From Psammoneis japonica (lineage: Eukaryota): a DNA stretch of 64,000 bases. The DNA lies in contig QPGO01000017.1 of assembly GCA_008632985.1 (NCBI GenBank), positions 496,001-560,000 on the forward strand. The letters run 5' to 3'. The number at the start of each line of letters is the position of its first letter. Position 1 is the stretch's first letter. Shown here piece after piece: positions 7,727 through 44,219 of this stretch. The notes beneath the pieces were generated by a model, which saw nothing but the letters and a program-made list of their open reading frames with translations, did not search any database and had not been told where the DNA came from. The position numbers were made by a program, and so were the translations under genes.

Positions 7727-8158
7727 TGCAAAGAGTCGAATCGGCTTGACAATCACGCACGACGTTTAGACAGGCACTTGTACAGGGAACATGGCAGGGA
7801 CGCCTAATGTTGTTACATGTATGTTGTCGACGCAAGGAGCAATGACCATGCACGGCGGCGCGGCGCGGGCGGACCACAGACTCAAGACCGGACCACGACC
7901 GACGCGACCAGGTAGGTACGTACCTACTGTAGGTACGATCGACATGTACCGGTAGGTATCGTACCTCGACCGGACTGTCGCTCGGCGGACCACACCAAAG
8001 GTACAATAGGTGCCGTACCCGTACCGCCCGGTGATCGCGTCGTCATGGATATCGGTGCTATAGGTTCTCCGCTCAATACTCTCTACAAAAACGAAGTGGA
8101 CGGAAGAACAAAACACTTGAATCAGTGATGCTGTGTCCAGGAAACAAAGGCAAAAAGA

Positions 8159-8240
8159 CGACTGCAGCAGGACTCGAACCTACGCGGGAGAACCCCAATC
8201 GATTTCTAGTCGATCGCCTTAACCGCTCGGCCATGCAGTC
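8159..8240 (-). tRNA. tRNA-Ser(AGA)
   Basis: Reverse complement GACTGCATGGCCGAGCGGTTAAGGCGATCGACT-AGA-AATCGATTGGGGTTCTCCCGCGTAGGTTCGAGTCCTGCTGCAGTCG folds as a cloverleaf with long variable arm, has A/B boxes and is followed by a T-run terminator. Confidence 0.95.
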
Positions 8241-8344
8241 GATGTTCCGTAACAATGACAACTTCATTACATGATTGCTAAAAACAAAATAAGACTTTAA
8301 TTTTCTTCTTGTTCCAAACTCTTCCACACTCGAAAGCAACACCT

Positions 8345-12444: not shown

Positions 12445-13131
12445 CTACTTCGAGTTCAGAGGCATTGCTGTCTTCGTCGCCACATATAAATGTACACTTC
12501 CAAAGCAACCAATCTCATCATTTGTGAAATCAAATCCAAATTCCTCAAACAGTTCATCCATATCTCGAATAATGTCGCCAGCTGCCTCACACATCTTCGT
12601 CAGTCGCATGCCGACGCAGTTCCTGCTGAGTGGGTAGTTCACATCTACCATAATCAGACGCCCTTTCATCTTCAAGACGCGCCTCAGTTCTGACATTGCT
12701 CTTTGACTGTCGGGATACCCGGTGAATGCCATTGTGATGACAACGCTATCAAAGTATCCATCTGGGTAAGGCAAATCTTCCACTTTGCCGCGGACAAGCT
12801 TCACGTTGTCGCTACAAATGCCACTTTGTTGAAGATTGCGTTTTGCAATGGAGAGAAGTTTCTCATTCCATTCGACTCCATGTGTCTCATATTTATCAGC
12901 ATACTGTGTAAGAAGATAACCCGTTCCAAACGATACCTCCAGAACACGTGGACCTTCAATGTACGGAAGAACTGCACGGAGCCAATTCTTCCACAAGGGG
13001 CAGATTTTTACACAGCCATCATAGGTTCCAGCAGTTTTTGTGTATGTTGCATTGAACCGATCCGTGAAAGCGGCTTTGTCTACTGGTTCCTCGGAATAAA
13101 CAATGTCGCCGCGAGATTCCTTGTTTCCCAT
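12445..13131 (-). CDS. Class I SAM-dependent methyltransferase (Methyltransf_11/UbiE-like)
   Basis: VLEVSFGTG (motif I), GKVEDLPYPDGYFDSVV, ELRRVLKMKGRLIMVD; likely start MGNKESRG. Confidence 0.88.
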   Translation of the reverse strand: MGNKESRGDIVYSEEPVDKAAFTDRFNATYTKTAGTYDGCVKICPLWKNWLRAVLPYIEGPRVLEVSFGTGYLLTQYADKYETHGVEWNEKLLSIAKRNLQQSGICSDNVKLVRGKVEDLPYPDGYFDSVVITMAFTGYPDSQRAMSELRRVLKMKGRLIMVDVNYPLSRNCVGMRLTKMCEAAGDIIRDMDELFEEFGFDFTNDEIGCFGSVHLYVATKTAMPLNSK

Positions 13132-20680: not shown

Positions 20681-20840
20681 TTGCAGACTGCCGGCATCAG
20701 GGACAATCTAACAGACATCCAGGACAGATGACAATCATGCACCAGATGAGAAAGAAAGTGAGATCATTGGATCTCTCAATGCTGTCTGTGCCAGTCTGTC
20801 CAACACAGGGGAGTGTGCTCCCCATCTTGGATGTCTGTCA
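20681..20840 (-). repeat. 3' LTR of Copia #1
   Basis: Aligns with 27527-27696; adjacent polypurine tract on minus strand. Confidence 0.88.
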
Positions 20841-23800: not shown

Positions 23801-26800
23801 CACCTTGATCCACAAATGCATGTTTGTCATGACAATTTGGCAAGTGTTGATCCAGGAATTGGCAAAGCCACTTGAGAGGACTGGCTTTGGAGACTCGTGC
23901 AACACCATGGAGCATGCGTGTTTTGTTGTCATGCACAGTGATCCAACACGTTTCACCATTAAAACCAAGACAGTCAGACTTGCGGTCATCGTTCTTGGAA
24001 GCCTGACCAGCAAAAGTAAAGTCCACAGCAAGGCCTTGGCATTGTTGGGTCACCTTTCAGGTCATGTCAGGTCCTGCAGGCATCTTGACTTGCTTGGCCT
24101 GAACACACGTTGGACAAACATCAAGGGCTGGGTTGGCATGCCTGAACTTGGGGACCCCTTTGACATGCTTGTGAGCATTGCACAAGCAATGATTGCTGGG
24201 ATGTCCAAGACGGTGGTGCCAGCGGAGGAGACATTCAGTCTCAACTTTGAGAGAGCAGACCAGAATGGGAGCAGGCAACAGCGGCAAGACTTGTGGGACA
24301 AAATTGAATTGCATGGAGAACAACTCAGCATCTGCCAAGAGAGGTTCTGTTGGAGCTTGTTGAACATTGATGCAGAAGACGGCACACAGGCATGCATCAT
24401 CAATGTTGTCAACTGAGGTTGAGCCAGGCATTGACGGTGCTTGACAGGTGGCAGTCTCAGACAGAGGAATTAGAGGAAGTGTAAAAACCTTTCCATGTCA
24501 GAGAATGACATGGACAACAACCTCTTGGGCATCAGTTGAAGCGGCACACATGCAAGCGCCATTGGCGTGGGTCTTCTTGAGGAGCTCGGAACAAATGGCC
24601 TGAGGCTTAAAACCAGAAGCCCATGCAAAATCGCGTTCATCAATCAAAGTGGACCTCAGACTTGGGTGGCAAAAGGCGCGCACAAGAAGAAAGCCATCAG
24701 CATTCTCTGCTGGTGCTTGCAAGCAACCACAGCCATGAGGAACCATGTCAGATCCTTCAGCAGGGAGCATCTTCAAAGGACAGGGATTGTCCGGTCCAAA
24801 TGGGGTGCAAGCATGAAGAAGGGTCTTGTCGCCTGCACAGGAGACCCAAGCACCAGTGTCAATTTGTGCACGGTGTGTCGTTGAGTCACGGAGAGCACAT
24901 GATTGACAGGGACAATGGGGGCACTCAAGGTTTCAAAGGTTGCAGGTGATTCCATGGGAGGAAAAATTGGAGAGATGCGCGCTGCACTCAATGGCAATGG
25001 GTGTTGACTGGTGGTCATGTCAAGGCACTCAAAGCCATGATCTTGATTGGTGGGCATGGGGACATTGGAGTCTTGTGCAGGGGATTCATGAAGAATGGGT
25101 TCCCTCCCCTGATTGATGCTGTCAGGGTCATCATCTGGAATCATCTGGACATCCAGAGTGCTGGCCTTCATCAAAGTTGAAAGAAGGTTTGCAAATGACA
25201 CATGTGAAAGAGGTTGTTCAGCGGAAGGCAACAAGTCAAGCAGATCCTCTTTCCTGGACACCCTGCTTGCATGGGTTGATTTTGGATTGGGGAGGGATGG
25301 GCGGCATTGTTTGTCCGAACGTGACAATGGCCCCAGGAAAAATCCTTCTTGGGCTTCTCAGACTTGAGTGCATCTTGAGCATGCTGATCACGTTGAAGGA
25401 ATTGGGAGAATCGGATGAGGTGGGTGCGTGGGCACTCAGCATCACTCAACACAGGGCACTCGTGGAATGAGTGACCATCACCACAGACGACACAAGGACA
25501 GGTCTGTGCTGTGGCAGGTGATGACTTAATCCTGTGGACACAAGCCTTGTAAATGCCATGCAATGCCTGCACTTCATCATCCGGAGGACCATCCACAGCA
25601 GCAAGTTCATTCACAAAGCACTCCACAGCATCCACGGGTGCTTCTGCAGGAGGGGGATTGGTTTCTGTCAGAGTCTCCTCTACAACTGAGGGTGGATCAG
25701 ATGGCTCATCTTCAGGTGGGAAGTCGAGACCTCGAACAGGAGCTGCAAGAGAAGGATTGGCCGGGTTCTGATTGTGGAGATGACGTGGAGGGTGCTTGGG
25801 AGCATTCTTGATGCAAAGAGCAGGACCATCCAGTTCCTTGAGGATTGTGCCAATGGTCTCAACAATCTTCTTCTGAGAGAACTTGTGTTGCTTGTTCTTG
25901 TCTTCTCAAGCATCCACTGTTTTACAGTGCAGACACTCTCCACAGCAGGCATTGCCAAGAAAAATGTCTGGCTCACCAGGGTCATCAAGAGAAGCATTGA
26001 CATTGGAGACAATCACCTGTGGCTGGAGGAAGTCCCTGAAGAGAGCACAGTGGCTAAGAATCGTGAGATTGTTTTGGTGTGGGCAGCTCTTGATCAATTC
26101 ACACTGACACTTTGTCCAAATTGGCAGGACATCAAAAAGGATCATCTTGATGGCAGCGCATCCATCTCCATGGCACTGGCAAACAATGTCAGGATGCTTG
26201 GAGTTGGCTGGAAAAATCCCAACCTTCTGGATGCACTGGAAGACAGTCAACTTCATCTGATCAAGTGGCACTCGCATCTGAAGTTGCAGGTCATCTGCAG
26301 GATCATTGCCACTTGTGAAGCCCCAATTTCCACCATCCTTGATAAAACACCATAGAGGGTGCATGTGTGTGCCACAAGCCGAGGCTTGTTGGGTTGCAGC
26401 AGCACACCATGCATGGATTCCTTGAGGAGAGATGTCATCACAAGTGAGGGAATCACAAAGAAAAGACTTGGGATCCCAGTCAGTGCAATGGATGAAGAGA
26501 GAACCATCAGTGAGCATGAGACGCTCTGCACCATCTTCGTGACAAAGATTTCCAGACTTGTGGGGTGCTGGTGACTTCCCCAACACTGCTTTGCCTGCAT
26601 CCTTGCATTGATGGCAAGCTGGCACATCCTTTGGAAGTCCTTTTGGATCAAAGGTGCACATGGCACTGGTTGCTGTCAAGGCAGAAGCCATGGCAGTGGC
26701 AGTCATGGCAGGAGACGGTGCAGAAGGAGCAGTCCTCGTCAATGCATTGGCCATGGCTTGCTCAAACTGTTTTGGACCAGGCAAATGAGCGGCCAAGGCT

Positions 26801-27526
26801 TTTGCAAAGTCTTCAGGAGCAGCGCCGGTGGCAGTGGCCGATGGAGTTGCAGGACTTGGGGCAGGCGTTGAGTTTGGGTGTGGAGTGTCAGAGATGTCAT
26901 CCCAACAATCACAACACTGAAAACCAGGACGAAAATGGAGACAAACAGTCCCGACATTCCGAGATTGCTTTGATCATGGTCTTCTAAAGATTGGCAAGAT
27001 TCAAGCAAATCTGAGAATCATGAGGAGCAGCCACAAAGAGAGAAGCCTTGTCTGTGAGTGGTCCAATGCACACAAGATCTTTGGGGTCAGCGCAGCTTGG
27101 GGAATGATGAGGTCCTGAACAATCTTGTGACGGAGAGTTACAAGAGCATTGCTCTTGAGGCCTTGAGGAGCAAATCCATCCAGAAGATCTTCAGGAGCAG
27201 GGATCTTGTCCAAATGAAGGGCATTCAGGAAACAGTGTGCATCGGGTGAGCGATCATGTGGGTTGAACTCAACCAGTGTTGACTTGATCATGGTCAAATC
27301 AAAACGGTGTTTTGGGTTTTGTTCACCATGGCTGCACTGGAAAAAATTAAATTCCTGCACAGAGCTCTTGCATGTGTTCTATGGTGGTCATTTGATCACA
27401 AATCGAGAGGCGAAGAAATGGCTGTGACAATGATGATTTCAACGAAGAAAAATTGCCAAACCACACGGTGGGCGTTGCGGTGAAGCAGCACAGAGGAAGA
27501 CAAACAGCGCACTGCTGCTCACAACC

Positions 27527-27696
27527 TTGCAAACTGCCGGCATCAGGGACAATCTAACAGACATCTAGGACAGATGACAATCATGTGCTAGATGAGAAAG
27601 AAAGTGAGCAAAAGAGAGATCATCAGATCTCTCAATGCTGTCTGTGCCAGTCTGTCCGACACAGGGGAGTGTGCTCCCCGTCTCGGATGTCTGCCA
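27527..27696 (-). repeat. 5' LTR of Copia #1
   Basis: Aligns with 20681-20840, with a 10-bp insertion. Confidence 0.88.
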
Positions 27697-28732
27697 CCAA
27701 AAACATCAACCTTGTTGTTCCTGGGCATGTTGATCACCTTGCATCACCACATCCATGCCTTTTCCTTGACCACCAACTGAGGACTGCATTCCATGACCCT
27801 GCACATTGGCATCACTCTGCTGGTCGCACGGCGGGCAAGGCAAAACTTCAGCAGAGTGGTGGCGATGGCTGTGCTTGGAGGGCATGCAAAGAAGCATTTG
27901 GCCTCAAAGCAACTCTCTAACTCTCTTTTGAATGTGAGCATTTCTCATTTTTGGAAATTGATGAGACCTCTTCTGCTGCAAGCTCTTGTCTGTTTTGTGA
28001 TCGAGAGAACATGGGTGGTTCTTCATGAGACCGGGCAAGAAGGCAGCCCATCAAACAATGTGGGGAGCAGTGTTTGGAACACAGGGCCAAGCCTGTGAAC
28101 AAAGAAAAGGGCATGTGTGAAGTTTGCTCTGGCAAAGGCAGCAAGTGTGTCAAACACAAAATTTGAGAAGGGTCTTTTGAGCGGCCGAAACTTTCTTGAA
28201 GACGCGCATCTGGTGATGGTGTTTTTGACTGGAGCAACAGCACTCTTGAAAATGAAAAGTCAGCCGTGAGCCATGAGACTCAACAGCATGGAATGCAAAT
28301 TGTGGAGCTGTGCAGACATGGCAACCCCATGTTTGATGACCTTCTCTTTCAAGAGAAACTCTGGGAAGCAAGAGGGACAAACAAAAAATGCACACACAGC
28401 AGGAGACGATGGCTGCAGAGTGGCTGGCTCACCTCACTCATCTCATTCAACAGTGCTCAAAATGAGCAGGATCAACAATGGGCAATTGAAATGAATGAGC
28501 TAGATGGGTTGGCGAGTGAAGTGGAAAAATGGGACAGCGAGCTGGCCCAAATCCATGTCTGAGCACAACAACATGAAAACGCAACGTGTCTGTCCTGGCA
28601 TGCTTCGAGTGCATCATCATCATGGTGTTTTCCAGCAAAACAGGAGAATTGACAACTGACACCACTTTGCAAATGGCACTCTACAGTGAGCCCAGCTGGT
28701 GAAGCAGCTCTGCCACACCAGCAGAGAGAGAA

Positions 28733-29008
28733 TGACAGGATTTGAACAGGATTTGGGTGCGCGCGAAATGTCGCACGCTGTTCAGTTTACCGCACACAGT
28801 TTTGTGTGCTTTAGTTCCGCGTGCTCGTGCGCGATGTAGTTTGCTTTCGAGCCACAAGGCTCACAAGAACAATGACAGTGGCCCGATTGTGTCGACTTGC
28901 ACGTCTTTCGGCTCCTGTGACGGTCTCTGAGCGGAGACTCATCTGCCATTTAGACAGCAGTGAGGAGTTGTTGTTTGAGTTCTTGCCATTTGCCTTCAAT
29001 TTCTGTCA
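28733..29008 (+). repeat. 5' LTR of Copia #2
   Basis: 276 bp, TG...CA ends, colinear with 35531-35806. Confidence 0.95.
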
Positions 29009-29942
29009 GGTTGACAGTCTTGCTCATTGTCAACCCATTGAGCAACCGCCATCGTCGTTGTTGATTTACCGACGATGCTGTTTCAATTCTGCGTGGACCT
29101 CCGTGTGTGTTCTACATGCATCGGCAAGTCTGCACGCATTCAACACCACCAGGCATCGGCAGGAATTTAACGTCACCGTCAAGTCTCCTTGCCGCTGCAT
29201 GTCTGGATTGATTGCACTGCCTTTTGTTGCTGGAAACACACATTCAACGGTTGTGTCCAAGTCTGTCCTTGATCCTCATCCCTTGACGTGCCCATTCAAT
29301 GGTCAACGGTCAAGAACCCCACATGTGCAAGGATCTTCGTCGCTGAAGACATGTGTGTGTCTACATCTTCACGGCCAAGAACTTGTGCCCACTCTTTGGA
29401 CTGCGGCTTTGCTGCCACTCTACAAGCACGCCAAGTCCATTGCACCTGATCTGCCCCAGACTGCTGGTGCTCTGCAGTTCCACCAGGTCCACAAGGACAA
29501 CTGTGAGAGCAAGCAGCCGTGATTGCAGCCTGCGTTGGGGCGAGGGTGTTTTTCCCGCGTTTGTTCGTTCGTCGCCTGACGCCTGCGTCAACTGGCCAGC
29601 CTGATCGGGAAATCCAACCGACATGAAATGAGAACGGTTCGGGGGTCTTGTCTGCCTCTAGTCAGCTTGCCTGCAGGGGTTTACAACCCGCCACTCCGCT
29701 CGCAAGCAACCCAAAGCGCCGCTGGCTGCAGGTTCGGACGTGCCGGCACAACTCCACGGACCGGATGGGAAGTTTAGCACTTGACAACGAACGGGACAGC
29801 ATGGCCCGGCGACTTCTGATTTTAAGATAGTTCAAGATTTCAAGTCAAGTCTGTTTCAAGTCAAGTCCATTCTCACCCAAGTTTCAGGTCTGCCTTCGCG
29901 TCCCAACCAGAATCGCTTGTTCTGGCACCGCTTTTGCCTGTC

Positions 29943-32900
29943 ATGGTTCTCACTCGTCAGCAACAAACCGATGGTTTTGAGCACGTTGTTGGAACCGTGC
30001 TTGCCCAAGGTGCTGGAAGCCCTCTTCGTTTGGCTTTGACCCATGACGGCACGGACTCGCACCAAGAACTGTTCACGTTCATGCCGTCCCAAATCGACTC
30101 ACTTGAGTGCGACAACGGCACTGATGTGGTCCCTTTGCCACGCGGTTGTAAGAACATGTTAGCAGCTCTGGTCAGTCTGTACATTGTCAAAGCACACAAA
30201 GGTCTCGACGTTGCCAATGACTCCTCGTTGTTCGCGCATGAGGAGTTCCTTGCCTGCCGCCTCAGCCCTGACTGCATGTCTTCTGTGTCCGTCGGCAGCT
30301 CGCCCCTCGCACCTCCGCATGTCACCAACCCGACCAAGGCACGCGACCCTGTGCGAGACTTCAAGCGAGGCATCAAGCGTGACCCCACTGCTTTCACGGC
30401 TCTCAAATCCGACAAGCAGTGGCACACTTGGCACACCTCACTTGTGGCACAAGCCCATGCCCAAGACGTCGAGTGCGTTCTAGACTCGTCGTACAAACCG
30501 ACCAGCCCCGAAGACAAACTGCTCTTTGCTGAACAGCAAAAGTGCATGTTTGCCGTCTTCGAACGCATCCTTCTCACCGACAAGGGCAAAAACACCCAGA
30601 CCGTCTGCCGCGCCTTGTCCGAGCATGCGCTCGCCTCCACCCGCGCTTCCATCAAGTCCTCCACCTTGCTCACGCACCTTGCCACCGCATGTCTTGGTGA
30701 TGGCACTTGGAAAGGTCCGACCCACGGGTTCATCCTTCATTGGCAAGATCAGTTGCGCAAGCACGAGGCACTCATCCCGGCCAGTGACCACTTCTCTGAA
30801 GGGCAGAAGCGCGTCATGCTCGAGAATGCCATGCATCCTGTCGAGGAACTCCGCGCCGTCAAGAACCAAGCTGATCAGCATCGCACACAGAGTGGCAAGA
30901 GCCTCACATGTGATCAACATTGTGGCTTGCTCCTCTCCGCGGCGGCTCAATGTGACAGCACGTTTCAACCCAAGACGACACCTCGAGCTCCCCGACGTGC
31001 CACACACGCACACAACGTCCACTCCGAGGAACCATCCAATGATGTGTTCTACGACATCGACAGCAACATTGACGTCCTTCAGGCCAACGCTGCCTGCACC
31101 CGCGGTCCCAGCCTCACCGGTGACCAATGGAATCGTCTCCCTCCCGACCACCAATGGATTTGGGATTTGTTGCCCCATTCCTCCAAGGCGATCATCCTTG
31201 AGCATTCTCGTCCGCCTCCCTGCAACCCGCGTGCCAGCAACTGCCATGAGTCCGTTGCGGTCAACCTTCACGACCAACGACTTGGGAGTGACGGTGATGT
31301 CAACTTGTCCAACACGACTCCTGCTGACTTTGGTGACCCTGCTCCAAATGTGGGTGCCGCTTCAAACAATCCCATTCTGGCACACCTCACCAAGTGCAAG
31401 CCACTGCCACCCGGTGATCTGCAGCGCCTGTTGTCTCCCAACCAAGCCCCCAATGCCAGTCGACCAGGCCCATCCGCCGCTCCCTCTACCTCGCCTGCTC
31501 CCGCAGATGACATGGAACTCAACGGCCGCACTTGCCACCGCGTCAACAACCACAATGTCATTTGCTCTGCCTCCGCTCATCGCTCCACATGCACTGGTGC
31601 TCTAGTCGATCGTGGAGCCAACGGCAGCATTGCTGGCGACAACGTTCGCGTCATTGCACGCACCTCTTGCCAAGTCGACGTTCAGGGCATTGACGACCAT
31701 CAATTGGTGGACATCCCCATTGTCACCGCTGGCGCCATCATTGAGACACAGCGTGGTCCCGTCATTGCCATCCTCCATCAGTGCGCGCACACAGGAAAGG
31801 GCAAGACCATTCATTCCTGTGGCCAACTCGAATGGCACAAACATGATGTCAACGATCGATCTGTCAAGGTGCCCAATGGCTTGCAACGTGTCGCCACCCC
31901 TGATGGCTGTGTCACCCCAATTGACATCAAGGGCGGCCTGCCTCATGTTGCCATGTGTCCCCACACTGACGCCGAATGGGACACCCTGCCCCATGTCATC
32001 CTTGCCGGTGATGACACTTGGGATCCTTCCATCCTCGATCACTCTCTCACTGACAACAACCAGCGGCACGACACGATCTCTGACCTGCAGGACGATCCCA
32101 CTGCCAACCTGTTTGACGAATGCGGCAACTGCTGTCACCGTGTTGTTGTCAACAAGGCCATCATGTCCGCCTCCTTGTCTGCCGATCACGCGTCCGTCCT
32201 CGATGACTGCCTCATTCCGAATGACGACGTGTTCTACAAGTGTCATCCACATGCGATTGACCGCAAGGACGACGACACACCGCCCCGGAGCGCACTGTGC
32301 AGCCCAAGGACCCCCCCTGCGAGTCTCTTCGGCCTCACTTTGGTTTCCAACCTGCCGATGCAGTTCGTCGTACTTTCGACTGCACCGCGCAGTGCGCCCG
32401 CATGCCTGCTGGCACACACCTTGGGAAGGCCCACAAATCGCCCAACCCCGCCCTTAATGTGCACCGCCGCAACGAGCCTGTCGCCACTGACACCGTTCAT
32501 GCTGACACCCCGGCCATCGACTCTGGTTGCACCAGCGCCCAACTGTTTGTTGGCACCGAGTCTACCGTCACTGATGTCTGCGGCACCAAAACAGACAAAG
32601 AGTTTGTCAACACACTCAAGGATCAGATCCTTGAGTGTGGTGCTCCATCCAAACTCATTGGCGACTGTGCTCAAGTTGAGATCAGCAACAAGGTGCTCGG
32701 GATCCTGCGAGCCCTCTTTGTCTCCAGCTGGCAAAGTGAGCCTCACCAGCAACACCAAAACTTTGCCGAACGTCAACACCAGACCGTGAAGCGCATGGCG
32801 AACACAGTCATGGACCGTTTCGGTTTGCCCGCCCACACATGGCTGCTCGCGCTCATGTGCGTGTGTTTCATCCTCAACCATGCAGCCTCCCCACGTCTCC

Positions 32901-35520
32901 ACTGGCGCACGCCCCTCGAGACTCTCACTGGCTCCACCCCGGACATCAGCCCATTGCTCCGCTTTCACTGGTGGGAACCCGTGTGCTGCCACCTCGATGA
33001 CTCCGATTGGCTGTCCGAATCCCGTGAGTTGCGTGGACGCTTTGTTGGCATTGCTGAGCACGTCGGCCACCAGATGACCTTCAAGATTCTCTCTGACGAC
33101 ACTCAGAAGATCCTCTGCTGGTCCAACGTACGATCCGCTGCCACCAATCCTGCCGCTTGAAACCTGCGTCTTGATCCTCCTGATGGGGAGCCACCTGAAC
33201 CCATCATCAAATCTCGCCATGATGACAACCCCGTCGATTCACCCAATGGGGAGATCAGGACACCCAAGATGCCAGTTTTCGACCCGCCAGACATCATCGG
33301 ACGCACCTTCCTCATGCAGCCACAAGAGGACGGACAATGCCACAGAGCTCGCATCGTCAAGGCCGTTGAAGACCACAAATGGAAAGTGAACGGCAACCCC
33401 GAGCTCACTGAGTTCGTCTGCTCTGTCAACAACGACGAATGCGAGGAAGTCCTGGCATGCAACGGCATCATGAATCACATTGAGCAAGAAGACGAAGACA
33501 CTGCTGTTTGGAAATTTCGACGCATTGTGTCACACGAAGGACCTCTGAAGCCTCATGACCCAACCTGGAAAGGCTCAAGCTACAACATCATGCTTGAATG
33601 GGAAAGTGGGGAGATCACGTCCAAGCCTCTTGCCATCATCGCCAAGGACGACCCTGTCACCTGTGCCATCTGTGCACGAGAGAACGGACTTCTCGACACT
33701 GATGGCTGGAAGCGGTTCCACACCATCGCGAGACGCCAGAAGAAGCCATTTCGCATGGCCAACCAAGCCAAGCTTTGCTCCTTCCGCACTGCACCTCGCT
33801 GCAAGTGCGGATGCGAAGTCCCCCAGAACTGCAAACATGCCATGTCACTGGACGAACGCAACGGCAACCGCAAATGGGGAGACGCAACTAATCTTGAGAT
33901 GGACCAACTCGATGAGTGCAAAGTCTTTCATGACTGCGGGCCCTCCGAGTCTTCCACTCCTCCTGCGGGACACAAGAAGATCCGAGTGCACCTGGTGCAC
34001 GACGTGAAACACGACGGCCGCCACAAGGCCTGACTCTTAGCCGATGGGCACCTCACAGATGCACCCATCAACAGTGTCCACTCCAGAGCAGTCTCCCTCC
34101 GTGGCCTTCGGCTGATGATTTTCCTGGCCAAACTCAACGAGTTGGAGACATGGGCTGCCGACATTGGCAATGCCTGCCTTGAAGCCACCAACAAGGAGAA
34201 ACTGCACATCGTGGCTGGACCCGAATTTGGCAAACTCGAAGGCCACATTCTTGTCATCCACAAGGCCCTGTGTGGACTGCGCAGCTCCGGCCTCCGCTGG
34301 CACAAGCGCTTTGCCGACTGCCTGCGAGCTGAAGGTTTCTTCCCCTGTCACACCAAACCCGACATTTGGATGTGCAGGAACGGCGACCACTGCGAACACA
34401 TCGCCGTTCATGTGGATGACGACCTTGCCATTGCCATGAAGGACCCTCAATCTTTTGTCGACACTCTCACAGAAAAGTGCAAGTTCAAGCTCAAGGGTGC
34501 GGGACCGATTGAGTTCCATCTGGGCTGTGACTTTTCCCGGGATCCTGACGGCACCTTGTGCCTGTCCCCGCGCAAGTGCATTGAACGCATGGCCGACAGC
34601 TGCACATGACTTTTTGGGGAGAAACCTGCCACCAACATCCTGTCACCTCTGGAGAAGGGTGACCACCCCGAACTGGACACTTCCGAACTGCTTGGGCCCA
34701 ATGGCATTCAACAGTTCCAGTCTCTTGTTGGTTCACTCCAATGGGCAGTGTCCCTTGGTCTAGTTGACATTGCCATGGCCGTCATGTCACTCTCTAGTTT
34801 CTGAGCTGCGCCCCGTCAAGGCCACTTGGATCATGCCAAATGCGTCTGTGGGTGCCTCTCCAAGATGTGACACGGTGCTCTCCGCGTTCGCACGGAAGAG
34901 CCCGACCATTGGATCTCCCTGCTCCGGCCCATGAATGGATGCATTCCATGTGCGGTGAAGCAGAAGAGATGATCCCGAAGGACGCTCCACCGCCCCTTGG
35001 CAAGTTCGTCACTGCCACCCACTGCGTCGATGCAAACTTGTGCCATTGCATGCTCACCGGATGCTCTGTCATGGGAATGCTCCACTTCCTCAACAAATTC
35101 CTGGCTGATTGGTTCTCCAAGAAGCAAGCCACCGTGGAGACTGCGACCTGCGGGTCTGAATTTGTTGCCGCAAGGACTTGTGTCGAGCAGATTGTCGACC
35201 TGCGCATCACCCTGCGCCACCTCGGCGTCCCGATCCGTGACGTCAGTTGCATGTTTGGTGACAACAAGTCGGTTGTAGACAGTGCCACCATCCCGCACTC
35301 CAAGCCACACAAGCGACACACCGCACTGTCGTTCCACCGTGTGCGTGAGGCAATTGCCTCTGGTCACCTTGAGCTCCACTTCATCGAAGGCTCCCGCAAC
35401 CCTGCTGACATTCTCAGCAAGCATTGGGGTCACTCCCAAATCTGGGACCTTCTCCGCCCCCTCATGTTCTGGAACTTCATTCCATCCGAAGTCGAATCTG
35501 TTTCTGTGACTCCTCAAGCA
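29943..35520 (+). pseudogene. gag-pol polyprotein of Copia #2, disrupted
   Basis: ORF pieces 29934-32789, 32297-33160, 33269-34033, 34115-34609, 34840-35583; frameshifts plus TGA stops at inferred CGA(Arg) positions (34031, 34607, 34802); Tyr nearly absent. Confidence 0.92.
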
Positions 35521-35530
35521 AACTGGGGAG

Positions 35531-35806
35531 TGACAGGATTTGAACAGGATTTGGGTGCACGCGAAATGTCGCGCGCTGTTTAGCCCACTGCGCACAGTTT
35601 TGTGTGCTTCAGTTCCGCACGCTCGCACGCGATGTAGTTTGCTTTCGAGCCACAAGGCTCACAAGAATGACAACAGTGGCCCGATCACACCAACTTGCAC
35701 GTCTTTCAGCTCCTGTGACGGTCTCTGAGCGGAGACTCATCTGCTGTTTAGACAGCAGCAAGGAGTTGTTGTTTGAATTCTTGCCATTTGCCTTCAATTT
35801 CTGTCA
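35531..35806 (+). repeat. 3' LTR of Copia #2
   Basis: 276 bp, colinear with 28733-29008. Confidence 0.95.
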
Positions 35807-36307
35807 GAGAGGGGGGGCCTCCAGCATTCACATGGGATGTGTGTGAGGTGTGAGTGATGAGTGACGACATCATCAAACACAATGCCGCAGGTTCCCAATG
35901 GGGGAGGGCAGGGGCTGTGTTCATGTTCATGGGAAGATGCACATGTGTGGCATTAAAAGCAAGTGACGAATGTTGTGCTCAGTGCACAATGTCTCATGTT
36001 TGAGGATGCTTCTGCTGCTGTCAGCATTTGTTGATGTGATGAATTTAAAGTCAATGAAGACACAAATGACATCAATTTGTCAGGTGCAAAGCACAGCACA
36101 ACTGACAAATTTTCGCCAGGAGACGACTCCATCACAAAAATCGCAGAACCCAGCGTGTCTCATGCACGTTGTTCTTGTTCTCATCTTGCTCGGAATCGTT
36201 TCAAGAGCCACGAACTTCCAAATCAGACAACTGCTGTTAGCATCGTAGGCACCAACAGCAATGTGCCAGCGAGGAATGACAGAAGTGGCTGAGATTTTTG
36301 ACAGAAA

Positions 36308-39300
36308 ATGGTGGTGCTAAATTTGTTGGTGCAACCGAAACCAGGCTACACGCATCCAAAGAAACTCCAACGTATTCAAGTGGACACTTCAGAACGAGTC
36401 AAAGATGTTGTCTCTAAACTCAAGCTTGAAAAGAAAGGAACTCACTTTCATGCGAATGGAGGTGAACTTCCCTTGAATTCTTCGATTGCCTCTCACAATG
36501 TTCAAGATGGAAGTGTCCTCGAGACTTGCAACTGTCCAGTCTTGTTGGCTGTCTTACCATCGGTTCTAAAAGATTTCAACGAGGTAGAAAAACTGCCAAA
36601 ACTGACGATTGAGGAGAAGAGTCAGTTCGCCCGCTTTTGGATGATGCACTTTTGCATCCGTGGCCAAACAGATGGTCACCCAATGACATCAAGTCCCGGA
36701 TCATCTGTTTGGCAACCATCAAGAAAGTGATTCAACGCGATGGTCGATTTGAAGTGGAAGCAATTCCTCACTGTCAAGATCTGCATTCCCTCTCTGAGTT
36801 CATGAAAACTGCATGGAACCGTGTCAATGCTGCACCCACCAGTCCAGATGGAACTCCGAGATGCCGAGGTGGTCACAACACAATGGCACACATTGTCAAA
36901 CCAACTTCTCGAAACCGAAATGGACAGCCAACTGCTTGTTGGGAGTTGCTGCAAAACAAACTGGACAAATGCCATCTTGTGGCAAGTCAGCTTGGCCCCA
37001 ATGAGGATGCCATCGAAGAATTTCTCAAGCAGGATTCGGCTGGACATGGCACACCATCTGCTGCGTCTCAATCCCCTTCTAGAATGAGACGCACTGCCGG
37101 AGAAGTGGCAACGCCCAGTGCAATGCGGCCACGCCAAAAGCTGGCGATGGCTCCATCACCAGGGCGAAGGCAGTCGACATCTGTCCAGTGCATTGGGTGC
37201 ATCGCTCAAGCAGAGTGTGCATGTTTGGCAGGCTGCCCCTTTCACAAGCAATTTTGTTGTGCCATGTGCTTTGTTGGCAATCACCCTCCCTTCCAACGCA
37301 ATCACGAAAATGTCCCACTCACCGATCGGAGAGTCAAACCACTCTTGAAGGAACAAAATCGCAGACCCTGCATCCCAGATTGTGCCTCGGGGGCACTCTC
37401 CATTCTACAAATTTTGCACCAATGTTCGAATCGCATGGACACAAACTTGCGGGAGTGCAGTCTGGCAGAAAGTCATCTCAAAAAGCTTGCTCAAGAAAAG
37501 TGTCGATCAAATCTCTACGACAGTCAGGCCCGTGGACGAACCGCCTTTGCGTGCGTGGAATCTCTGACAGACAAAGGATTTCTCCGCAAAGAACTCATCC
37601 CTGGATCGCGTGAAGCCAAATTCAGTCTGCTGCCTCCAGGAGAAACCATGGGGAAACAATGCTGTGAATTCGACCAAGTGCCACAGCGCATGCTTTTTAC
37701 TCAACCAATGCAGACAGAAAGGAATCAAGTCTGCAGTGGCCAGCATCATGCAATTCGATTGATCATCGACAACCGTGAAGATGCCACAGACGAGGACGTT
37801 TGGACTCAATGCATGTGTTTGACTACAAATTTTTAAAATGATCAATGAGACGACACTCGAAATTTAAAAAAAATCTCTGTTCACATGAGAGACAAATTTT
37901 CAACATGCAGCAACTTAAATTTATAAATTTTTGTCATTGTGTGTGTTTGCAATCATTGTCTAAAATGTGTGTGCTGTTCACAGAGATGCAAAACCAACAG
38001 TGCCGTTTTACACAAACTGCAGAGTTGAAGGGACGAACACATTTTGAATGTGACAGTGTCCCTTGTGTTAAAATTTTAAATTTTTTTTGAAATGAAAGAG
38101 ACGACATTTGACCATCCTTCGCGATGAAGCAGACTCGTTTCGTCGCACACACTTTGTTTCTCATAAATTTCGTTGCACAACGAATCCCCTTTTTCTTTCT
38201 CACCACCTGCCGGTTGGTGGCACTCCTTTGTTCAAGGACTGAAAGCAAAGATGGTTAGAAAAGTCAAGGGCAATTTGGTGGTTGAGGCTGCAGTCGTTCT
38301 GAGTTCTTGCTTTCAGGTGAAATCCGTTGTTGAGTTGGTCGAAAACAAACATAAAACTGCACACGAATGTTGTTGCTGATTGAGCCACTGTCTTGCTGTT
38401 TGGTTGTAAGGTGTCCCAAATCTGATGTCTTCTTCTAAAGTTGTCCCAAGAGCTGCTGGCTTGGGCATTGGGCTGGCTTTGTCACTGCTTTGGTGGTTCA
38501 CAACTACAGTCACGCTGTGTTCTTGCCTTTGAGTGAGATCCGTTGTGAAAACTGGTTGGAAACAACTGCGGAACTTCAAAGATTTTAAGAAATGGGTGTG
38601 CATGGCATTCCATGGCACGGCGACGCTCCAAGGCCCCGATGGCCAGGTGAACAACAACCAGATTTAGTGTTTGAGAAACCGAAAGCACCCTTCAAGTTCA
38701 AACCAGAAAATGTGAAAAGATGTGGATTGCTTTCTAAAAAGTGGAAGACAGAATCTGTTGACAGATTGGAAGCATCGGAAGCTGGTGCTCATGTGTCATG
38801 GGACAGACACAGCAAACCGCACTGTCAAATTGCTCGTTGTGATCATGGGAAACTTGACAAACTGGCGAAAGAACAAGGTGTTCCTGCAAACAGAATGAAG
38901 GGAACGTACATTGACCCTGGCAAGTTTGCACACATTGACCATGAAAGTGATTTTTGGCAAGATTGTTTTGCACCTCATTTGTCCAAGTTGGATGTCAAGG
39001 GATTGGTTGATGACATGTTGAAGTCTCATTCGGAAGACACTGGTGACCGCCTCAGGGGCAATGTCACTGCAGGCGGTGGATGTGCTTCACAAAACATGCG
39101 GTTGGGTGAAGAAGGAGCAACAGAACCTCAAGTCACTAAGGGGCTTGGGAAAGAGCACGCAGAAACAATGTGTTGCATGTCTGACATGCTTTGTGATTGG
39201 GTCGAGACAAGAACATTTCAAGCGAACAACAAGAGTTGCCAGCTGGGGAATGTCTCTTTGTGATTCAAAATGAAAATGGTGAGGAAAAAGTGCCACCCAC

Positions 39301-42131
39301 AGTTGTGGAACGAAAGTCTTGGAGTGATTTGGCCGATTCGGTCAGTGATTGCGGGCGCAGAAAAAAGCGACTTGACTGCGTTCGCATCGGGGGAGAAAGT
39401 TCATGCGAAGGTGGTTGCCAACTCTGTCGAATGAAACACAGTGGATGCAAAAGAATTTTGTTTGTCATTGAGGGTGCGCGTTGTCTTCAACGTGACAACG
39501 ACCAAAAATGTGATGCTGTGGAGCGTTGCCAATGCTGCAAGGAACTGGCGCAGCATCATGGATCAGGACTCGTTCAAGAAACTCTCGAAGGCACGCTTCG
39601 AACCTTGCAAATCAATCACAACTGCTTGGTTTTGTTTGCAAGAGGATGCAATGAAACGATCGATGTGCTCTTCATCATGCGCGAAATGCTGGCCGCGTCA
39701 ACCGATCGAGAGCCTTCACTGTCCTGTGATCAATGTTGTGCGAATGCTCGACGGCGCATTGTTCCAGAAAGTGACCCCTGTCACCACCCGCCTCTCATGA
39801 GAGGAAAGCTTCAGATTCACCAAGCGGAGAGTTTCCTCAGAAGAATGTGCCTTGGTCAACTTCGTGAATTCCAAAATGCAATTCACCACAACACTGATTC
39901 TTTGCCAGCCCCCAATCACAGCATCAACGAGGAAATTATCGAGATTGATGAAGAAACGCCCCAGAAACGCCCAAGGACAAATTTGTCAAGTGCAAAATCT
40001 GTTCAAGAAGTCACACTCTGTGACGACACCTCAAGCAATGACAGTGAGAGCGTCGTGGATCTGTTGAACGACTCCCAGGATGAGATTGAACTTTTGGAAG
40101 ATGGCGGGTGGAGCAAAGCCAAAGCGGCAGTGAAGAATCCGCTACAGAGATTTCAGGAGTGACGCCAGCAAGGTCTGGAAAGCAGCGTGCCAAGATCTCT
40201 TAGAAGCAGAAAGTCAACAGTTTGAACAAAGTGTTGAGAAGTGGCTTGAACAGCTGGGTTGGCACGAAGATGACGAGTGCCCTGTTGTGCCCAGAAACAT
40301 GATTTTGTTTTGGTGTGTTCATTTGCAACTGAGTGGAAATGCCATTGTTCAAATGGTTCGAACCTCAGCAGAGCTGGAAAGTTTCTAGGCAAAGTGGGGG
40401 TGCGCATCCAATGATGCGCTGTCAACAACACCCAGAGTCACGCAACGAGTTGGGTTGCTGGAACAAAGGCCAAGCGCAGCGAATCCCCCAACGAATCGAA
40501 CACCTGCGGCTGCCGCAAGTGGACGCACAGGCATTGAATCACATGGAACAGCTCAACGCACTTCTGCAACTCCAGCTCGACAGGCTCTTGACTTCCAAGT
40601 GTCCCAGAGCTGCATGATCTGTGAAATGGAAATGAGGGGACACGATCAATTTGAGACATCCTGCCATCATGTCTTTCATCTAGAATGCACCGTGAGTTGG
40701 GTTGAGGGGACTGCTGCTCGAAAATGTCCTCGCTGCAGCGCTGATGGAATTGGTCTCCCCAAACGAGCAAGGCCACCTGCAGCATGCATGCAGACAAAAG
40801 GTCATTTTTGTCACGCCCTTTGTGACATTTAAAGGCTGCAACACGTCGCCGTGATGCATCAACTCTTGTCAGTGGCTGCACATTGCACTCCTCCCCATGT
40901 GTCACGCGTCCATGCGGCTCTTTACCAACGTGCACTGAAAAACGGTTTTGGCAGAACAGTGTGGGCATGTGCGAAGGAACACGCAGAACTGCACAGAGTT
41001 TTGCGCGTTCGACAGTGATCAACGTTGCTGCAGACAACTCCCACTCAGGGTTTCGAACCCCTGGCCTCCTGCCTGATGGTTGCGATGAACCACTCCGCTG
41101 TGAATTCACAATGCAGCATGCATGCAAACAAAAGGTTGTTTTTGTCACGCCCTTTGTGACATTTAAAGGCTGTAACACGTCGCCGTGGTGCATTGACTCT
41201 TGCCAGCAGCTGTGCATTGCACACCACAAATTCCCAGGGGACAAGGCCCAATTGGACAGAGATCGGCACTGGCACAGGCAACTCCTTCCAAAGCATCGAA
41301 GCCTTCCATTCCGTGCAGGGAGAACGACTGCGCTCAAGTGGCCCAAGAGGCCCGTCTTCATCGCTTTGAACAGTCTGGTGAGATGCGCTGCAATTCTGGA
41401 GCAGCAACGGATCGAACCAGTGGCTCGCCTCGACGTGCCTCGAAACGAACCTGGAAATGTCCAAAGCACACCTTCGAAAATGGCATCATCATGGACACAT
41501 GTGAAATGTGTGAACAGCCAAAGCCAAATGCCGCTGTTTGGAGATGCGAAGAGTGCACTTTTGAAAACCTTGCAAGCACCTCAAACTGCAGCATGTGCAC
41601 TGCTGTCAATCCATTCTTCATCTGCCCCGAAACGGTTGACTCTCAAACATCATTTGCCACAGTTCCAGTGGCGAGAGGTTTGAATGAAGATCCGGTTGCC
41701 TCCGATTGTGGAAGAAACATTGCCCCGACAGTGCCACCAGCAATCTCATCAGGTCAAGGTCCAATGCCTCTGAGGAAAGTTGCCTGTGGCGCGCGCAGAC
41801 GTCAGGGCCACAATCGAACATCGGCGACCGCCGAAAACTGCCCTGCATTCAATCTGCATTCAATCATCCTAGCGAAATTGCCAGGCACCAGCAAAAACGA
41901 GCTCAAGCAGAGGAGCAAGCCAGACAGAAATGTGCAGATGCAACCCGATTTGCCACCGAAACAAATGATGCCCTAGAACGAAACAATGCTCTTCAAATGG
42001 AAATGCAGCGAATGTTGCAGCATTCGATCAGGCAAGACGAAGAGCTCAAGAGGATGCAGGCGGAAGAAGTCAAACGAAAGCAGAAAGCCGCTGAACAAGC
42101 AGAAAAGCGCGCACGATGTCTTGCAGATTGA
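36308..42131 (+). pseudogene. MUS81-like (ERCC4/XPF family) structure-specific endonuclease pseudogene with extra domains, split by an insertion
   Basis: Ubiquitin-like N-terminus; Mus81 winged-helix-like segment (RPCIPDCASGALSILQIL..LAQEKC..TAFACVESLTDKGFL); RLIIDNRE; ERCC4 core ELPAGE..VVERKSWSDLADSVSDCG..FVIEG; RING (CMICE..CHHVFHLECTVSW..CPRC); two RanBP2 zinc fingers (WKCPKHTFEN..CEMC, WRCEECTFEN..CSMC); several frameshifts. Confidence 0.75.
37795..39200. mobile_element. Insertion interrupting the ERCC4 domain (probable transposon fragment with AT-rich end)
   Basis: Unrelated sequence between the DNRE motif (~37770) and ELPAGE (~39230); A/T-run-rich segment 37800-38200 and foreign ORF fragment 38592-39263; no TIR/TSD identified. 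Confidence 0.45.
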
Positions 42132-42149
42132 AGCCGCCCACTGGGGCCC

Positions 42150-43270
42150 CACAGACATTTTCAAGTCAAGTTTCTCATGTTGACGACTCTCGCCTTGGTG
42201 CGGTGGCTTGTGTTCAAGGATTCGACTTCGAAGTTCCTCGATTCTCTCGGTGCCCTCCGAGTCCTCAATGTTTGAAAATGCTTCGACAACCAAGTCGAAA
42301 GTGACTTTGGTTGGCTTTTGATCTCGATCACCAGCAAGATGCTGCAAACACACAGTGAGGAGTTGGTTGGCCGCCTGGCTGTTTGTCACTGGACGTCCGA
42401 ATCTGATGCTGCAGCTGCTGCAGATGTCATGCAGGCCTTGATTGTTGCTGTGCAACTCACAGCATTTGGTTTGGCACCAAGATGCCCACCAACCAAGAAC
42501 AAACTGGTCATTCTGCACAAAATTTCGTCTGCATTGCGCCCCGATTCGACACTCTTCGAGTTTGCATGAGCGTTGACACGTGTTGAGCACGAAATGACGT
42601 CTGGCCACAATGACTCATTGTTCCATCATTTTGAGCAGTTGCGTCACTTGGTCTGCATTGTTCTCTCTTAGGAAATGCATTTGAGCATGCATTGTAAACG
42701 AATGTGTTCGGCTTGACGTTTTCATGCCCCATCTGGTGACTCTGTGCATTTCCTGAAGAATTCGGGCTGCTTTGTCAGTGGACTCAGGGTCGCTGCAACT
42801 CTTCCATTCTCAAGAGGAGCCTTGCAGCATGATCTGCACAGTTCGCTTCATGGCTTCTTGCCATTGAGTTGATCACCAAGTTAAATTTCCTGGCGTCTGG
42901 CTTCAACTCAGGGTCTTTTGACTCCAAATGGGCTTCCCAAAGTCTCTCCATTGTCTTCTCAGTGCATTTGTGAGCATCTTTGGATGAAGATCTGACCCAT
43001 GGTGTGATTGCTGAGTTGCAAGCAATGTAATTTGGCTGCACAAATGCACAGTCCTCAAGATCCAATTTGTTGCCAACATCTTCTTCACTCTCTGATGATT
43101 CAGATGACAGCTGAGCAACCCAGTCTAAGAGAGCTTCGGCCTTTTCTGTGGCATCTGGCTGCCAACTTTGCACCCAAGCATTGATGAAAGCATTGAATGT
43201 GAAAACATTTGGATGAATCTCTAACTCCAAACCCATTTGGATGTCTTGAAGCTTCTTCAGAAGCATTTCC
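42150..43270 (-). pseudogene. Pentatricopeptide-repeat (PPR) protein fragment, decayed
   Basis: PPR-like motifs PNVFTFNAFINAWVQS, PNYIACNSAITPWVRS, PDARKFNLVINSMARS, PNTFVYNACSNA, PDVISCSTRVNAHANS spread over several frames. Confidence 0.8.
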
Positions 43271-43308
43271 TTGATTTTGGCCGCTGGGTGCTTCTGGACG
43301 TGTTTCGA

Positions 43309-44128
43309 GCCTCAGTTTTGACAGCGCACTTTGACTGTTGGGATGCCCAGCAAATGCCATTGTGATGACAATGCTGTCAAAGCAGCCACTTGAATGTAAG
43401 GCAAATCTTCCACTTTGCCATGGACAAGCTTCACATTGCCACAGCAAGTGCCACGTTGTTGAAGATTGCATCTTGCAATGGAAACAAGTTTCTCACTTCG
43501 CTTGACTCCACGTGTCTCATGTTTGTCAGCATGCTGTGCAAGAAGATCCCCATTCCAAACAACACCTCTAGAACAGGTGGACCTCCAATGGGCAGATTTT
43601 CATGCAGCCATCACAGGTTCCAGCAGTTTTTGTGTGTGTTGTGTTGAGCTGATCTGCAAAAGAGGCTTTGTCTGCTGGGCTCCTCGGAACAAACAATGTC
43701 GCTGCAAGATTCCTTGTTTCCCATCATGTGCTCTCTCTCTCTCTCTCTGGCTCTAGAGCTAGAGAGAGAGAGAGTGGAAAGTGGTGAGTGTTGTTGTCTC
43801 ACATTTGCTGCTTTCAGGCCAAGAATGTGGAGTTCGCATCTGCTCTCGATCAGTGACAACGCAGGGGGGTGAGGCGAGTTCGTTTCGAACTTCGTGAAAC
43901 TGATTGTTCAGTGAAAAATGCTTGAACTGATGCAATGCCTCAAGCTAAGTTTTGATGATGCCCCATAACATAGCGTCGTCCTCCATTCTGATTGACAAAA
44001 TGAAAATGAAATGACGCAACGGGAACTCCAAACTGGCGGATGAACTTGGTCGGACGGGTCGCAGGAAACTTTTTCGCGCCATTTCTGACACGAAAAAGGC
44101 GCGCATGACAACCCGTGACACGGGCTTC
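43309..44128 (-). pseudogene. Decayed direct duplicate of the methyltransferase 5' part and its upstream region (paralogous to 12681-13493)
   Basis: Colinear alignment by eye; translates to MGNKESCSDIVCSEEP and GCFDSIVITMAFAGHPNSQSALSKLR versus MGNKESRGDIVYSEEP and GYFDSVVITMAFTGYPDSQRAMSELR. Confidence 0.93.
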
Positions 44129-44219
44129 GCTTTTCGATCAACTTGAAACTCATCCCACAAAGAAAAAGAGAGAAAAGGAAAAAGATACACGAGATTCAAC
44201 AGCGTACAGTAGAACGAAA

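Follow-up and report, generated by a model that had tools for sequence, protein, structure and literature searches.

A dead long terminal repeat (LTR) retrotransposon of the Ty1/copia type, 7,074 bp long, occupies positions 28733 to 35806 of the window analysed here, a 64-kb stretch of contig QPGO01000017.1 (positions 496,001 to 560,000, forward strand; Psammoneis japonica, assembly GCA_008632985.1). Its two LTRs differ reciprocally, that is, at seven sites one LTR reads TG where the other reads CA. The best explanation of this pattern, which we hold to be likely on the evidence of the sequence, is that two context-dependent transition processes have acted on the DNA of the integrated element, a fast one at TpA steps and a slower one at CpG steps. 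The fast process would change TpA to TpG or CpA (A to G on either strand of the palindromic TpA step), and it would be close to saturation, with about 85-90% of the TpA sites lost. The slower one, from CpG to TpG or CpA, would have removed about 25% of the CpG sites in each copy. Most of the reciprocal TG/CA sites would go back to TpA steps of the ancestral LTR, with one strand hit in one copy and the other strand in the other. What the sequence itself shows is the pattern with its direction, the fact that it arose after integration, the action on both strands and the boundaries of the affected compartments.

Reciprocal differences between the LTRs

A repeat search and a MAFFT alignment give a single ungapped pair of direct repeats (28730-29009 and 35528-35807, 89% identity), in which we place the 5' LTR at 28733..29008 and the 3' LTR at 35531..35806, both on the plus strand. 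Each LTR is 276 nt long; they end in TG...CA (the 5' LTR reads TGACAG...CTGTCA) and are 89.5% identical without gaps. All 29 differences between them are transitions, as are all 30 over the 280 aligned nucleotides of the repeat pair, and 25 of the 29 lie inside pyrimidine-purine (YR) steps. The seven reciprocal sites span 28828..28962, with their first bases at positions 28828, 28870, 28873, 28888, 28890, 28947 and 28961 of the 5' LTR. In the 5' LTR five of the seven are TG and two are CA, and in the 3' LTR the numbers are reversed (two TG, five CA).

We compared these numbers with a null in which 29 random transitions were placed on the 5' LTR. Over 20,000 trials the mean number of reciprocal TG/CA sites was 0.54 and the maximum was 5, and none of the trials reached the observed seven. 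The differences also adjoin one another more often than in this null (12 adjacent pairs against a mean of 2.9). We regard it as confirmed that the reciprocal pattern described in an earlier reading of the sequence (the original prediction) is real, and it is far beyond chance; all seven sites listed there are present. The same reading had named one site at which one LTR keeps TA and the other reads CA. This site is indeed found, at 28812, but two further TA/CA sites, at 28783 and 28788, had not been listed. It had named CpG as another possible source but underplayed the contribution of CpG: eight sites missing from its list have CG in one LTR and CA (six sites) or TG (two sites) in the other, and CpG decay accounts for 8 of the 29 differences.

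A separate observation concerns the bases in front of one of the TA/CA sites. At 28786-28788 the 5' LTR, and also a third copy, reads TTTA, where the 3' LTR (35584-35586) reads CCCA. These are three adjacent T-to-C changes that end at TpA, as if the hits had spread along a run of A on the opposite strand.

Timing of the changes and dating of the element

A retroelement makes both of its LTRs from a single template, and they are identical at insertion. Differences between them therefore arose after integration, unless the LTRs have been exchanged. An exchange is argued against by the target-site duplication, because its two copies match: GAGAA on the left (28728..28732) and GAGAG on the right (35807..35811), both on the plus strand, agree at four of five bases, and the mismatch is an A/G transition. 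In terms of strands, TG results when A becomes G on the plus strand, and CA when this happens on the minus strand; both outcomes are present in each LTR. For this one element, with its matching target-site duplication and with LTRs that differ only by transitions, it is supported that the mutation followed integration.

RNA editing and errors of reverse transcription are excluded as the main source of the changes. The same decay is seen in the duplicate of a host gene, described in the next section, and in a satellite with a period of 190 bp; neither of them passes through RNA. The satellite array lies at about 51500-54700 (its period is 389 bp when read as a dimer). It is nearly without TA and CG, and its monomers differ from one another by TG/CA swaps. 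At 31 YR columns of 14 monomers we counted TA 3 times, CG 8 times, TG 222 times and CA 175 times, and five of the columns are mixed, with at least three monomers each of TG and CA. Since the satellite is saturated (3 TA and 8 CG among 408 YR cells), it informs on TG/CA polymorphism, not on the ancestral state.

Between the LTRs the Kimura two-parameter distance comes to 0.118 when all sites are used, and to 0.031 when only the 132 positions outside YR steps are counted; four differences are found at the latter, three of them directly abutting a mutated step. Dating from the raw LTR divergence is thus inflated at least 3.8-fold. Three claims of the original prediction hold on the evidence of this section, namely that the mutation came after integration and on both strands (both outcomes in each LTR, target-site duplication matching at 4/5), that its source was not RNA editing or reverse-transcription error (TG and CA in both LTRs, decay in gene duplicate and satellite), and that LTR divergence overestimates the age of the element.

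Direction of change

The direction of change, from TA to TG or CA, is supported by three independent outgroups: homologous proteins, a gene duplicate and other copies of the family. For the comparison with homologues we used the region that encodes the C-terminal part of the integrase and the reverse transcriptase (RT) (32876..34886, plus strand). It was read through its five in-frame stops, which are all TGA, and the translation, with the stops as X, was aligned to 120 intact homologues. Tyr makes up 1 of its 670 residues, against 4.18% in the homologues, whereas Cys stands at 4.48% against 1.28% and His at 5.22% against 3.53%; Arg is unchanged (5.82% against 6.13%). At the 21 columns with a conserved Tyr the element has 14 Cys, 4 His, 1 Trp, 1 Phe and 1 Tyr, which means that 18-19 of the 21 conserved Tyr codons (TAY) have been lost to TGY, CAY or TGG. 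Arg is still present in 19 of its 27 conserved columns, and in 7 the codon is TGN or CAY. The remaining conserved residues have changed little (Leu 35/36, Gly 35/36, Ser 17/17, His 11/11, Trp 8/8).

The gene duplicate allows the same comparison at the level of single steps. The methyltransferase gene at 12.4-13.3 kb has a decayed copy (43307-44129, which corresponds to 12679-13494), in which the 18 TA steps of the gene read TA 3 times, TG 9 times and CA 6 times (83% lost). Its 42 CG steps read CG 18 times and TG and CA 12 times each (57% lost). Changes in the opposite direction are few: TA is gained at 1 of the 104 TG/CA steps of the gene, so that TA became TG or CA 15 times against once in reverse, and CG became TG or CA 24 times against 5 reverse changes. 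At 6 of the 104 TG/CA steps TG and CA are swapped. Our arithmetic from the homologue and gene-duplicate counts puts the loss of TA at about 2-7 times the rate of CpG loss.

To include other copies of the family, the contigs of one public run (X1) were compared with the element at a likeness of at least 80%, and 12,454 of the 657,387 contigs matched. The variant places among the matched contigs are mostly transitions (A>G 116, T>C 162, C>T 118, G>A 118), with 6-14 places for each kind of transversion. The counts of variant rows that follow cover 40 of 605 rows, of which one pair (28879/28880) lies in an LTR. At no fewer than 13 sites where the element has TG or CA (at least 12 single-base rows and the pair 28879/28880), other copies have TA, with shares of 0.14-0.66. 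CG is found in other copies in at least 7 rows, with shares of 0.79-1.00. The lower shares of TA and the higher shares of CG are what one expects of a TA decay that is fast and runs separately in each copy, next to a slow decay of CpG.

Extent of the TpA loss

Over the whole window the observed/expected ratio (o/e) is 0.23 for TpA, 0.58 for CpG and 1.5-1.6 for TG and CA. We divided the window into 128 bins of 500 bp, of which 3 are intermediate between compartments. Genic DNA (17 kb) has a TpA o/e of 0.60, a CpG o/e of 1.01 and TG/CA values of 1.16/1.16. In the silent DNA that we call A (26.5 kb) TpA stands at 0.06, CpG at 0.16 and TG/CA at 1.80/1.79. In silent DNA B (19 kb of pooled bins) TpA stands at 0.11, CpG at 0.71 and TG/CA at 1.60/1.46. 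The element is held by a stretch of compartment B (27501..43500) in which TpA is lost and CpG is mostly kept, and its internal region (29009..35530, plus strand) has a TpA o/e of 0.09 and a CpG o/e of 0.79. Altogether, 91 of the 128 bins (71%) are depleted of TpA.

Six host genes, which encode RPC5, a nucleotide-sugar transporter, a 2-oxoglutarate (2OG) oxygenase, the methyltransferase mentioned above, eL15 and a major facilitator superfamily (MFS) transporter, have TpA values of 0.47-0.79 and Tyr contents of 2.3-5.3%. They keep TA also across codon boundaries (23 times in RPC5, 17 times in the sugar transporter and 12 times in eL15). These genes lie beside DNA with a TpA o/e of 0.02-0.1, and the boundaries are sharp at the scale of 500 bp. 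The loss of TpA is therefore regional. It would appear that TpA has been erased from repeat, intergenic and pseudogene DNA and that the neighbouring host genes, including their silent sites, have been spared. What TA is left in silent DNA is commonest in TTAA (about 5% of the YR steps in that context) and absent as ATAC/GTAT, which suggests, from small counts, that the process hits TA poorly, or spares it, where the next base is A.

The same scar is carried by an environmental copia protein (P0103 in our set, from JGI, 821 aa), which is 55% identical to that of the window. A normal relative (loci L001 and L002), 82% identical to P0103, has 36 Tyr, of which P0103 keeps 7 and has His at 15 and Cys at 11; there are also ten changes from Ile to Val. 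The metagenome loci around the relatives of P0103 have normal TpA in eight of eight cases (0.47-0.70), and we used them as an outgroup only. Going by P0103, the process is therefore present in other elements or organisms too. Two further environmental proteins, P0176 and P0216, look similar to the Tyr-poor P0103.

Alternative explanations

Reciprocal sites can in principle arise from CpG as well, if methylated C is deaminated on opposite strands in the two LTRs. Decay of CpG is visible in this element and around it, at the eight sites with CG in one LTR, in the 7 of 27 conserved Arg codons that read TGN or CAY, and in the 24 of 42 decayed CG steps of the gene duplicate. However, as the original prediction had noted, the LTRs retain many CpG: both copies still have 13 of them, and another 8 survive in a single copy, which gives a loss per copy of 0.235 and implies about 22 ancestral CpG. 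With these values CpG decay predicts 0.62 reciprocal sites against the 7 observed (Poisson P = 3.9e-6). To derive all seven from CpG one has to assume a CpG o/e of 2.0 for the ancestral LTR; to derive them all from TA, a TpA o/e of 1.19. CpG decay also leaves unexplained why the element has a TpA o/e of 0.09-0.10 at a CpG o/e of 0.79-0.80, and why 18-19 of 21 Tyr codons and 15 of 18 gene TA steps were lost to TG or CA. That all of the reciprocal sites are decayed CpG we therefore find very improbable, although a two-class CpG model with a hypermutable subset would still be compatible with the LTRs taken alone. Some of the sites may instead have begun as TG or CA and have passed to the opposite state in two successive changes, by way of an unstable TA or CG. 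Both TA and CG are unstable here, and swaps occur at 6 of the 104 gene TG/CA steps and among the satellite monomers, but background changes are slow to accumulate (4 differences among the 132 positions outside YR steps), so that this route cannot give seven sites, and rough arithmetic leads us to expect about 0.8 such site in the LTR pair. We consider this route unlikely. Given a TA loss near 0.88, some 18-27 ancestral TA steps would by our arithmetic give seven reciprocal sites. The reciprocal sites are thus probably for the most part ancestral TpA steps hit on opposite strands, by our estimate 5-6 of the 7, with about one that may come from CpG and about one that may come from a two-step flip. 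The preference of the original prediction for a TA ancestor, as more parsimonious than CpG, is supported indirectly by the CpG-decay model (0.62 sites), the loss of Tyr codons and the TA found in family copies elsewhere in the element.

The remaining alternatives concern when, and where in the genome, the changes took place. They might have been made before integration, through RNA editing of the ADAR-like A-to-I type, with its preference for a 5' U, or through errors of a deaminase or polymerase in reverse transcription. This would fit the excess of TGY (15) over CAY (4) among the lost Tyr codons and the sites that are common to all other copies compared, and mutated source copies may have supplied part of the TG/CA load. 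Yet such changes would be common to both LTRs and cannot make them differ, and for each LTR to carry TG as well as CA (5:2 and 2:5), both strands must have been hit at each end of the element. Furthermore, the same decay is found in the gene duplicate, the satellite and intergenic DNA, all without an RNA intermediate, and an RT whose catalytic YVDD motif reads HVDD (34409-34420) and which has lost nearly all conserved Tyr could hardly have copied itself. We give an origin before integration almost no credence. Slightly better placed, but still quite improbable, is the idea that the LTRs are not sisters and that recombination or gene conversion with other copies has brought in family polymorphism. 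The family is very abundant (12,454 contigs), so that partners for conversion would be plentiful, and several of the TG/CA states are common to other copies, but the target-site duplication matches at 4/5 with a transition as its mismatch, and the LTRs align without gaps. Imported polymorphism would in any case have the same character of TA and CG decay, so that the mechanism would stand and only the claim on timing would be weaker. As to a uniform, genome-wide neutral bias that is masked by selection for TA in genes, TpA is indeed somewhat low even in genic DNA (o/e 0.60). This explanation is rejected, and we see next to no chance for it, because genes keep TA at silent codon-boundary positions right beside DNA with TpA values of 0.02-0.1, with sharp boundaries. 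Moreover, the element is young, with only about 3% divergence between its LTRs outside YR steps, and has nevertheless lost about 88% of its TA, so that under a uniform bias the silent sites of genes would be emptied.

Several observations speak against ancestral TpA as the source of the reciprocal sites and against its independent decay on both strands. The pieces of other copies that cover the seven sites read TG or CA, and once TT, and there is no TA or CG among the rows and pieces listed, whereas at three non-reciprocal sites neighbouring the seven a third copy reads TA, CG and CG, as expected. Two TA/TA steps and three TA/CA steps survive in the LTRs despite a TA loss of about 88% in the coding region. 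For the site at 28828, part of a run of CpG (CGTGCG against CGCACG), an origin from CpG is quite possible. The outcomes at the Tyr codons are skewed, with 15 TG against 4 CA (by our own binomial arithmetic, two-sided p of about 0.02), which could hint at a strand-biased component; the skew is absent from the gene copy (9:6) and from P0103 (11:15). Finally, at 30762-3 (12 contigs) and 32208-9 (17 contigs) every other copy compared has the state opposite to that of the element, and at 29252-3 this is so for 72%. Such sites are not predicted by independent decay of TA and need either amplification of copies that were already mutated or two-step flips.

Structure of the element and its surroundings

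The internal region is that of a degenerate Ty1/copia element, with frameshifts and TGA stops. From left to right, all on the plus strand, we read in its translation a putative motif LVDRGANG (31602..31625, frame 2), which we take to be aspartic-protease-like, then an integrase-core-like stretch (32480..32761, frame 1), the RT and a putative RNase H-like stretch (35017..35430, frame 3), the last presumably so by its position and by the look of its translation. The RT is recognised as the copia-type domain RVT_2 (Pfam PF07727, 33962..34552, E = 5.4e-16) and is the only one of these parts with Pfam support: the protease-like motif and the RNase H-like stretch are without a Pfam match, and Pfam rve was not detected in the integrase-like stretch. 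The latter runs on into the region that aligns at 50-62% identity with 120 copia-type proteins, and, judged from the translation and from this alignment, its place before the RT would fit the copia gene order (protease, integrase, RT, RNase H). The protease-, integrase- and RNase H-like parts sit in three different frames as read from the translation. A purine-rich run ending in GGGGAG (35516..35530, plus strand) lies directly before the 3' LTR and is a candidate polypurine tract.

The translation of 32876-34886 has 1031 homologues in the protein database, with a best identity of 62%, and PF07727 is present in all of the 120 that were listed. We found no same-family copies in the protein database (best identity 62% for matches of near full length and 67% for shorter ones), and no further copies of the element or of its LTR in the 64-kb window. 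An older copia-like remnant lies on the minus strand at about 20681-27698, with an SH3_retrovirus match at 22794-24056. Its LTR-like pair (20681-20842 and 27527-27698) has 11 differences, all of them transitions, and it lies in the compartment where both TpA and CpG have been lost. In the remnant none of the 7 conserved Tyr and one of the 15 conserved Arg is left, but it is too diverged overall for a clean count.

Because TAA and TAG have been erased, spurious open reading frames (ORFs) abound in silent DNA. Stop-to-stop ORFs of 150-990 aa are found there on both strands and are not genes; among them is an ORF of 987 aa (29826-32789) that has no Pfam match. An ORF at 39197-40162 (plus strand) is of another kind. 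It contains an ERCC4 nuclease domain (Pfam, E = 8.5e-15) and lies in the silent compartment, its TpA o/e is 0.03, and it has no Tyr and 6.2% Cys; it looks like a hypermutated gene of host type or a copy of one. A six-frame Pfam search of 35.8-44.2 kb found only this ERCC4 domain and a weak RING match.

The seven genes detected in the window are uninterrupted ORFs. Among the 120 homologues listed for RPC5 eight are named, and all eight are from diatoms (37-45% identity); the best unnamed match has 58%. In a ranking against PDB, eL15 scores best with plant rather than fungal chains. Neither this ranking nor a comparison with a protein atlas decided the clade of the host, which the named homologues of RPC5 did. 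The only tRNA gene found in the window, tRNA-Ser(AGA) at 8157-8241 (minus strand), lies in a genic island beside silent DNA.

Proposed mechanism and significance

Taken together, the process would behave like a genome-defence hypermutation and would be a mirror image of fungal repeat-induced point mutation (RIP). As to its chemistry, the candidate would be enzymatic deamination of adenine to inosine, which is taken for G, through a deaminase with a preference for a 5' T; no deaminase gene was found in the window, where no search aimed at one was made. The targeted DNA would be silenced chromatin, and the CpG decay would reflect cytosine methylation. A wider reading, which we put forward tentatively and to which we give a little less than an even chance, is that diatoms, and perhaps many protists of the stramenopile-alveolate-rhizarian (SAR) group, run an adenine-directed counterpart of RIP. 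In it, a DNA adenine deaminase specific for a 5' T would be aimed at silenced repeats and foreign DNA, apparently sparing TAA. As part of the same reading, this enzyme would erase TpA several times faster than methylated CpG decays, would kill retrotransposons by turning their Tyr codons into Cys and His codons, and would shape most of the non-genic genome.

There are practical consequences for work on such genomes. Similarity searches under-detect their transposons, as can be seen from the integrase, protease and RNase H that Pfam missed here, and LTR-divergence dating is inflated (3.8-fold in this case). On the other hand, LTR pairs are identical at time zero and so offer a natural clock that separates post-integration from inherited change and allows estimates of rates. 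Some diatoms are genetically tractable, and knockouts in them would be a way to look for the enzyme.

Comparison with known systems

The process resembles fungal RIP in several respects: both make transitions after integration, on both strands, in repeated or foreign DNA with sharp bounds, and both kill transposons and distort LTR dating and the dinucleotide composition. The two differ in direction. RIP changes C to T mostly at CpA and thereby creates TpA and depletes CpA and TpG, whereas here TpA is destroyed and TpG and CpA are created. Instead of the enriched TpA and depleted CpA/TpG that RIP leaves behind, affected DNA in the window has TpA values of 0.06-0.11 and TG/CA values of 1.46-1.80. 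Fungal RIP was rejected as an explanation, as the dinucleotide direction is opposite and the proteins of the host are diatom-like.

CpG decay at methylated cytosines is known in vertebrates, in plants and in methylated transposons. It changes CG to TG or CA on either strand and resembles the slower second process described here; the depletion of CpG, to an o/e of 0.16 in the older compartment A and 0.71 in compartment B, matches the gain of TpG and CpA. Unlike the fast process, it cannot remove TpA. ADAR, TadA and ADAT deaminases change A to I, which is read as G, and prefer U or T before the edited A; the wobble position A34 of tRNAs, for example, is preceded by U33. They act on RNA, whereas the changes here are in DNA, after integration and on both strands, in DNA that is not known to be transcribed. 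With APOBEC3 the process would share a context-specific, deaminase-driven hypermutation of retroelements, but the APOBEC3 change is from C to U, on the minus-strand DNA of retroviruses and in the course of reverse transcription (G to A on the plus strand), and not from A to G, on both strands or after integration.

The closest known system is that of the chlorarachniophyte Bigelowiella natans. According to a preprint by Mettrop et al. (2026), 230 of 231 mutations that mutation-accumulation lines gained in the hypermutable regions, which are two integrated viral regions, are A>G or T>C, all of them at TpA; the hypermutation arose in some culture lines only, and an ADAT2-like deaminase is proposed (bioRxiv 10.64898/2026.01.13.699255). 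In a genome of about 95 Mb it counts 124 clusters, while TpA has its normal frequency of 6% where there is no viral region, and as candidates its Discussion names ADAR and the TadA/ADAT tRNA adenosine deaminases (bioRxiv 10.64898/2026.01.13.699255). A term search of its main text found no mention of LTR, retrotransposon or CpG. Our own literature search for TpA-targeted hypermutation, with most subscription journals outside its scope, found this preprint only, and nothing for diatoms.

Both systems leave TpG or CpA in place of TpA, by A>G changes that may fall on either strand of nuclear DNA, and both are confined to particular regions amid otherwise normal DNA; in B. natans these are clusters poor in TpA and rich in CpA and TpG, with an enrichment of reverse-transcriptase and transposase domains. 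The marks of TpA hypermutation are found here as well: the direction (18-19 of 21 Tyr codons, 15 of 18 gene TA steps, 13 family sites), the action on both strands and the regional confinement within the 64-kb window, with the CpG component in addition. Unlike B. natans, the host of the window is diatom-like, and TpA depletion covers 91 of 128 bins, compared with 124 clusters in about 95 Mb there. In the window the process has struck an LTR retrotransposon, a satellite, a gene duplicate and intergenic DNA, and CpG decay goes along with it. In addition, the mutations there were followed in culture lines, while here they are read from scars in the sequence alone. TpA-directed hypermutation has thus been known since 2026 in B. 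natans, and what we describe is in a different lineage, with different targets and to a much greater extent. It would extend TpA-directed hypermutation of DNA from one chlorarachniophyte to a diatom-like lineage, where it affects 71% of the 500-bp bins of the window. If the wider reading is true, the scar in P0103, which belongs to an unrelated element, and the case of the rhizarian B. natans would make adenine-directed defence old and widespread.

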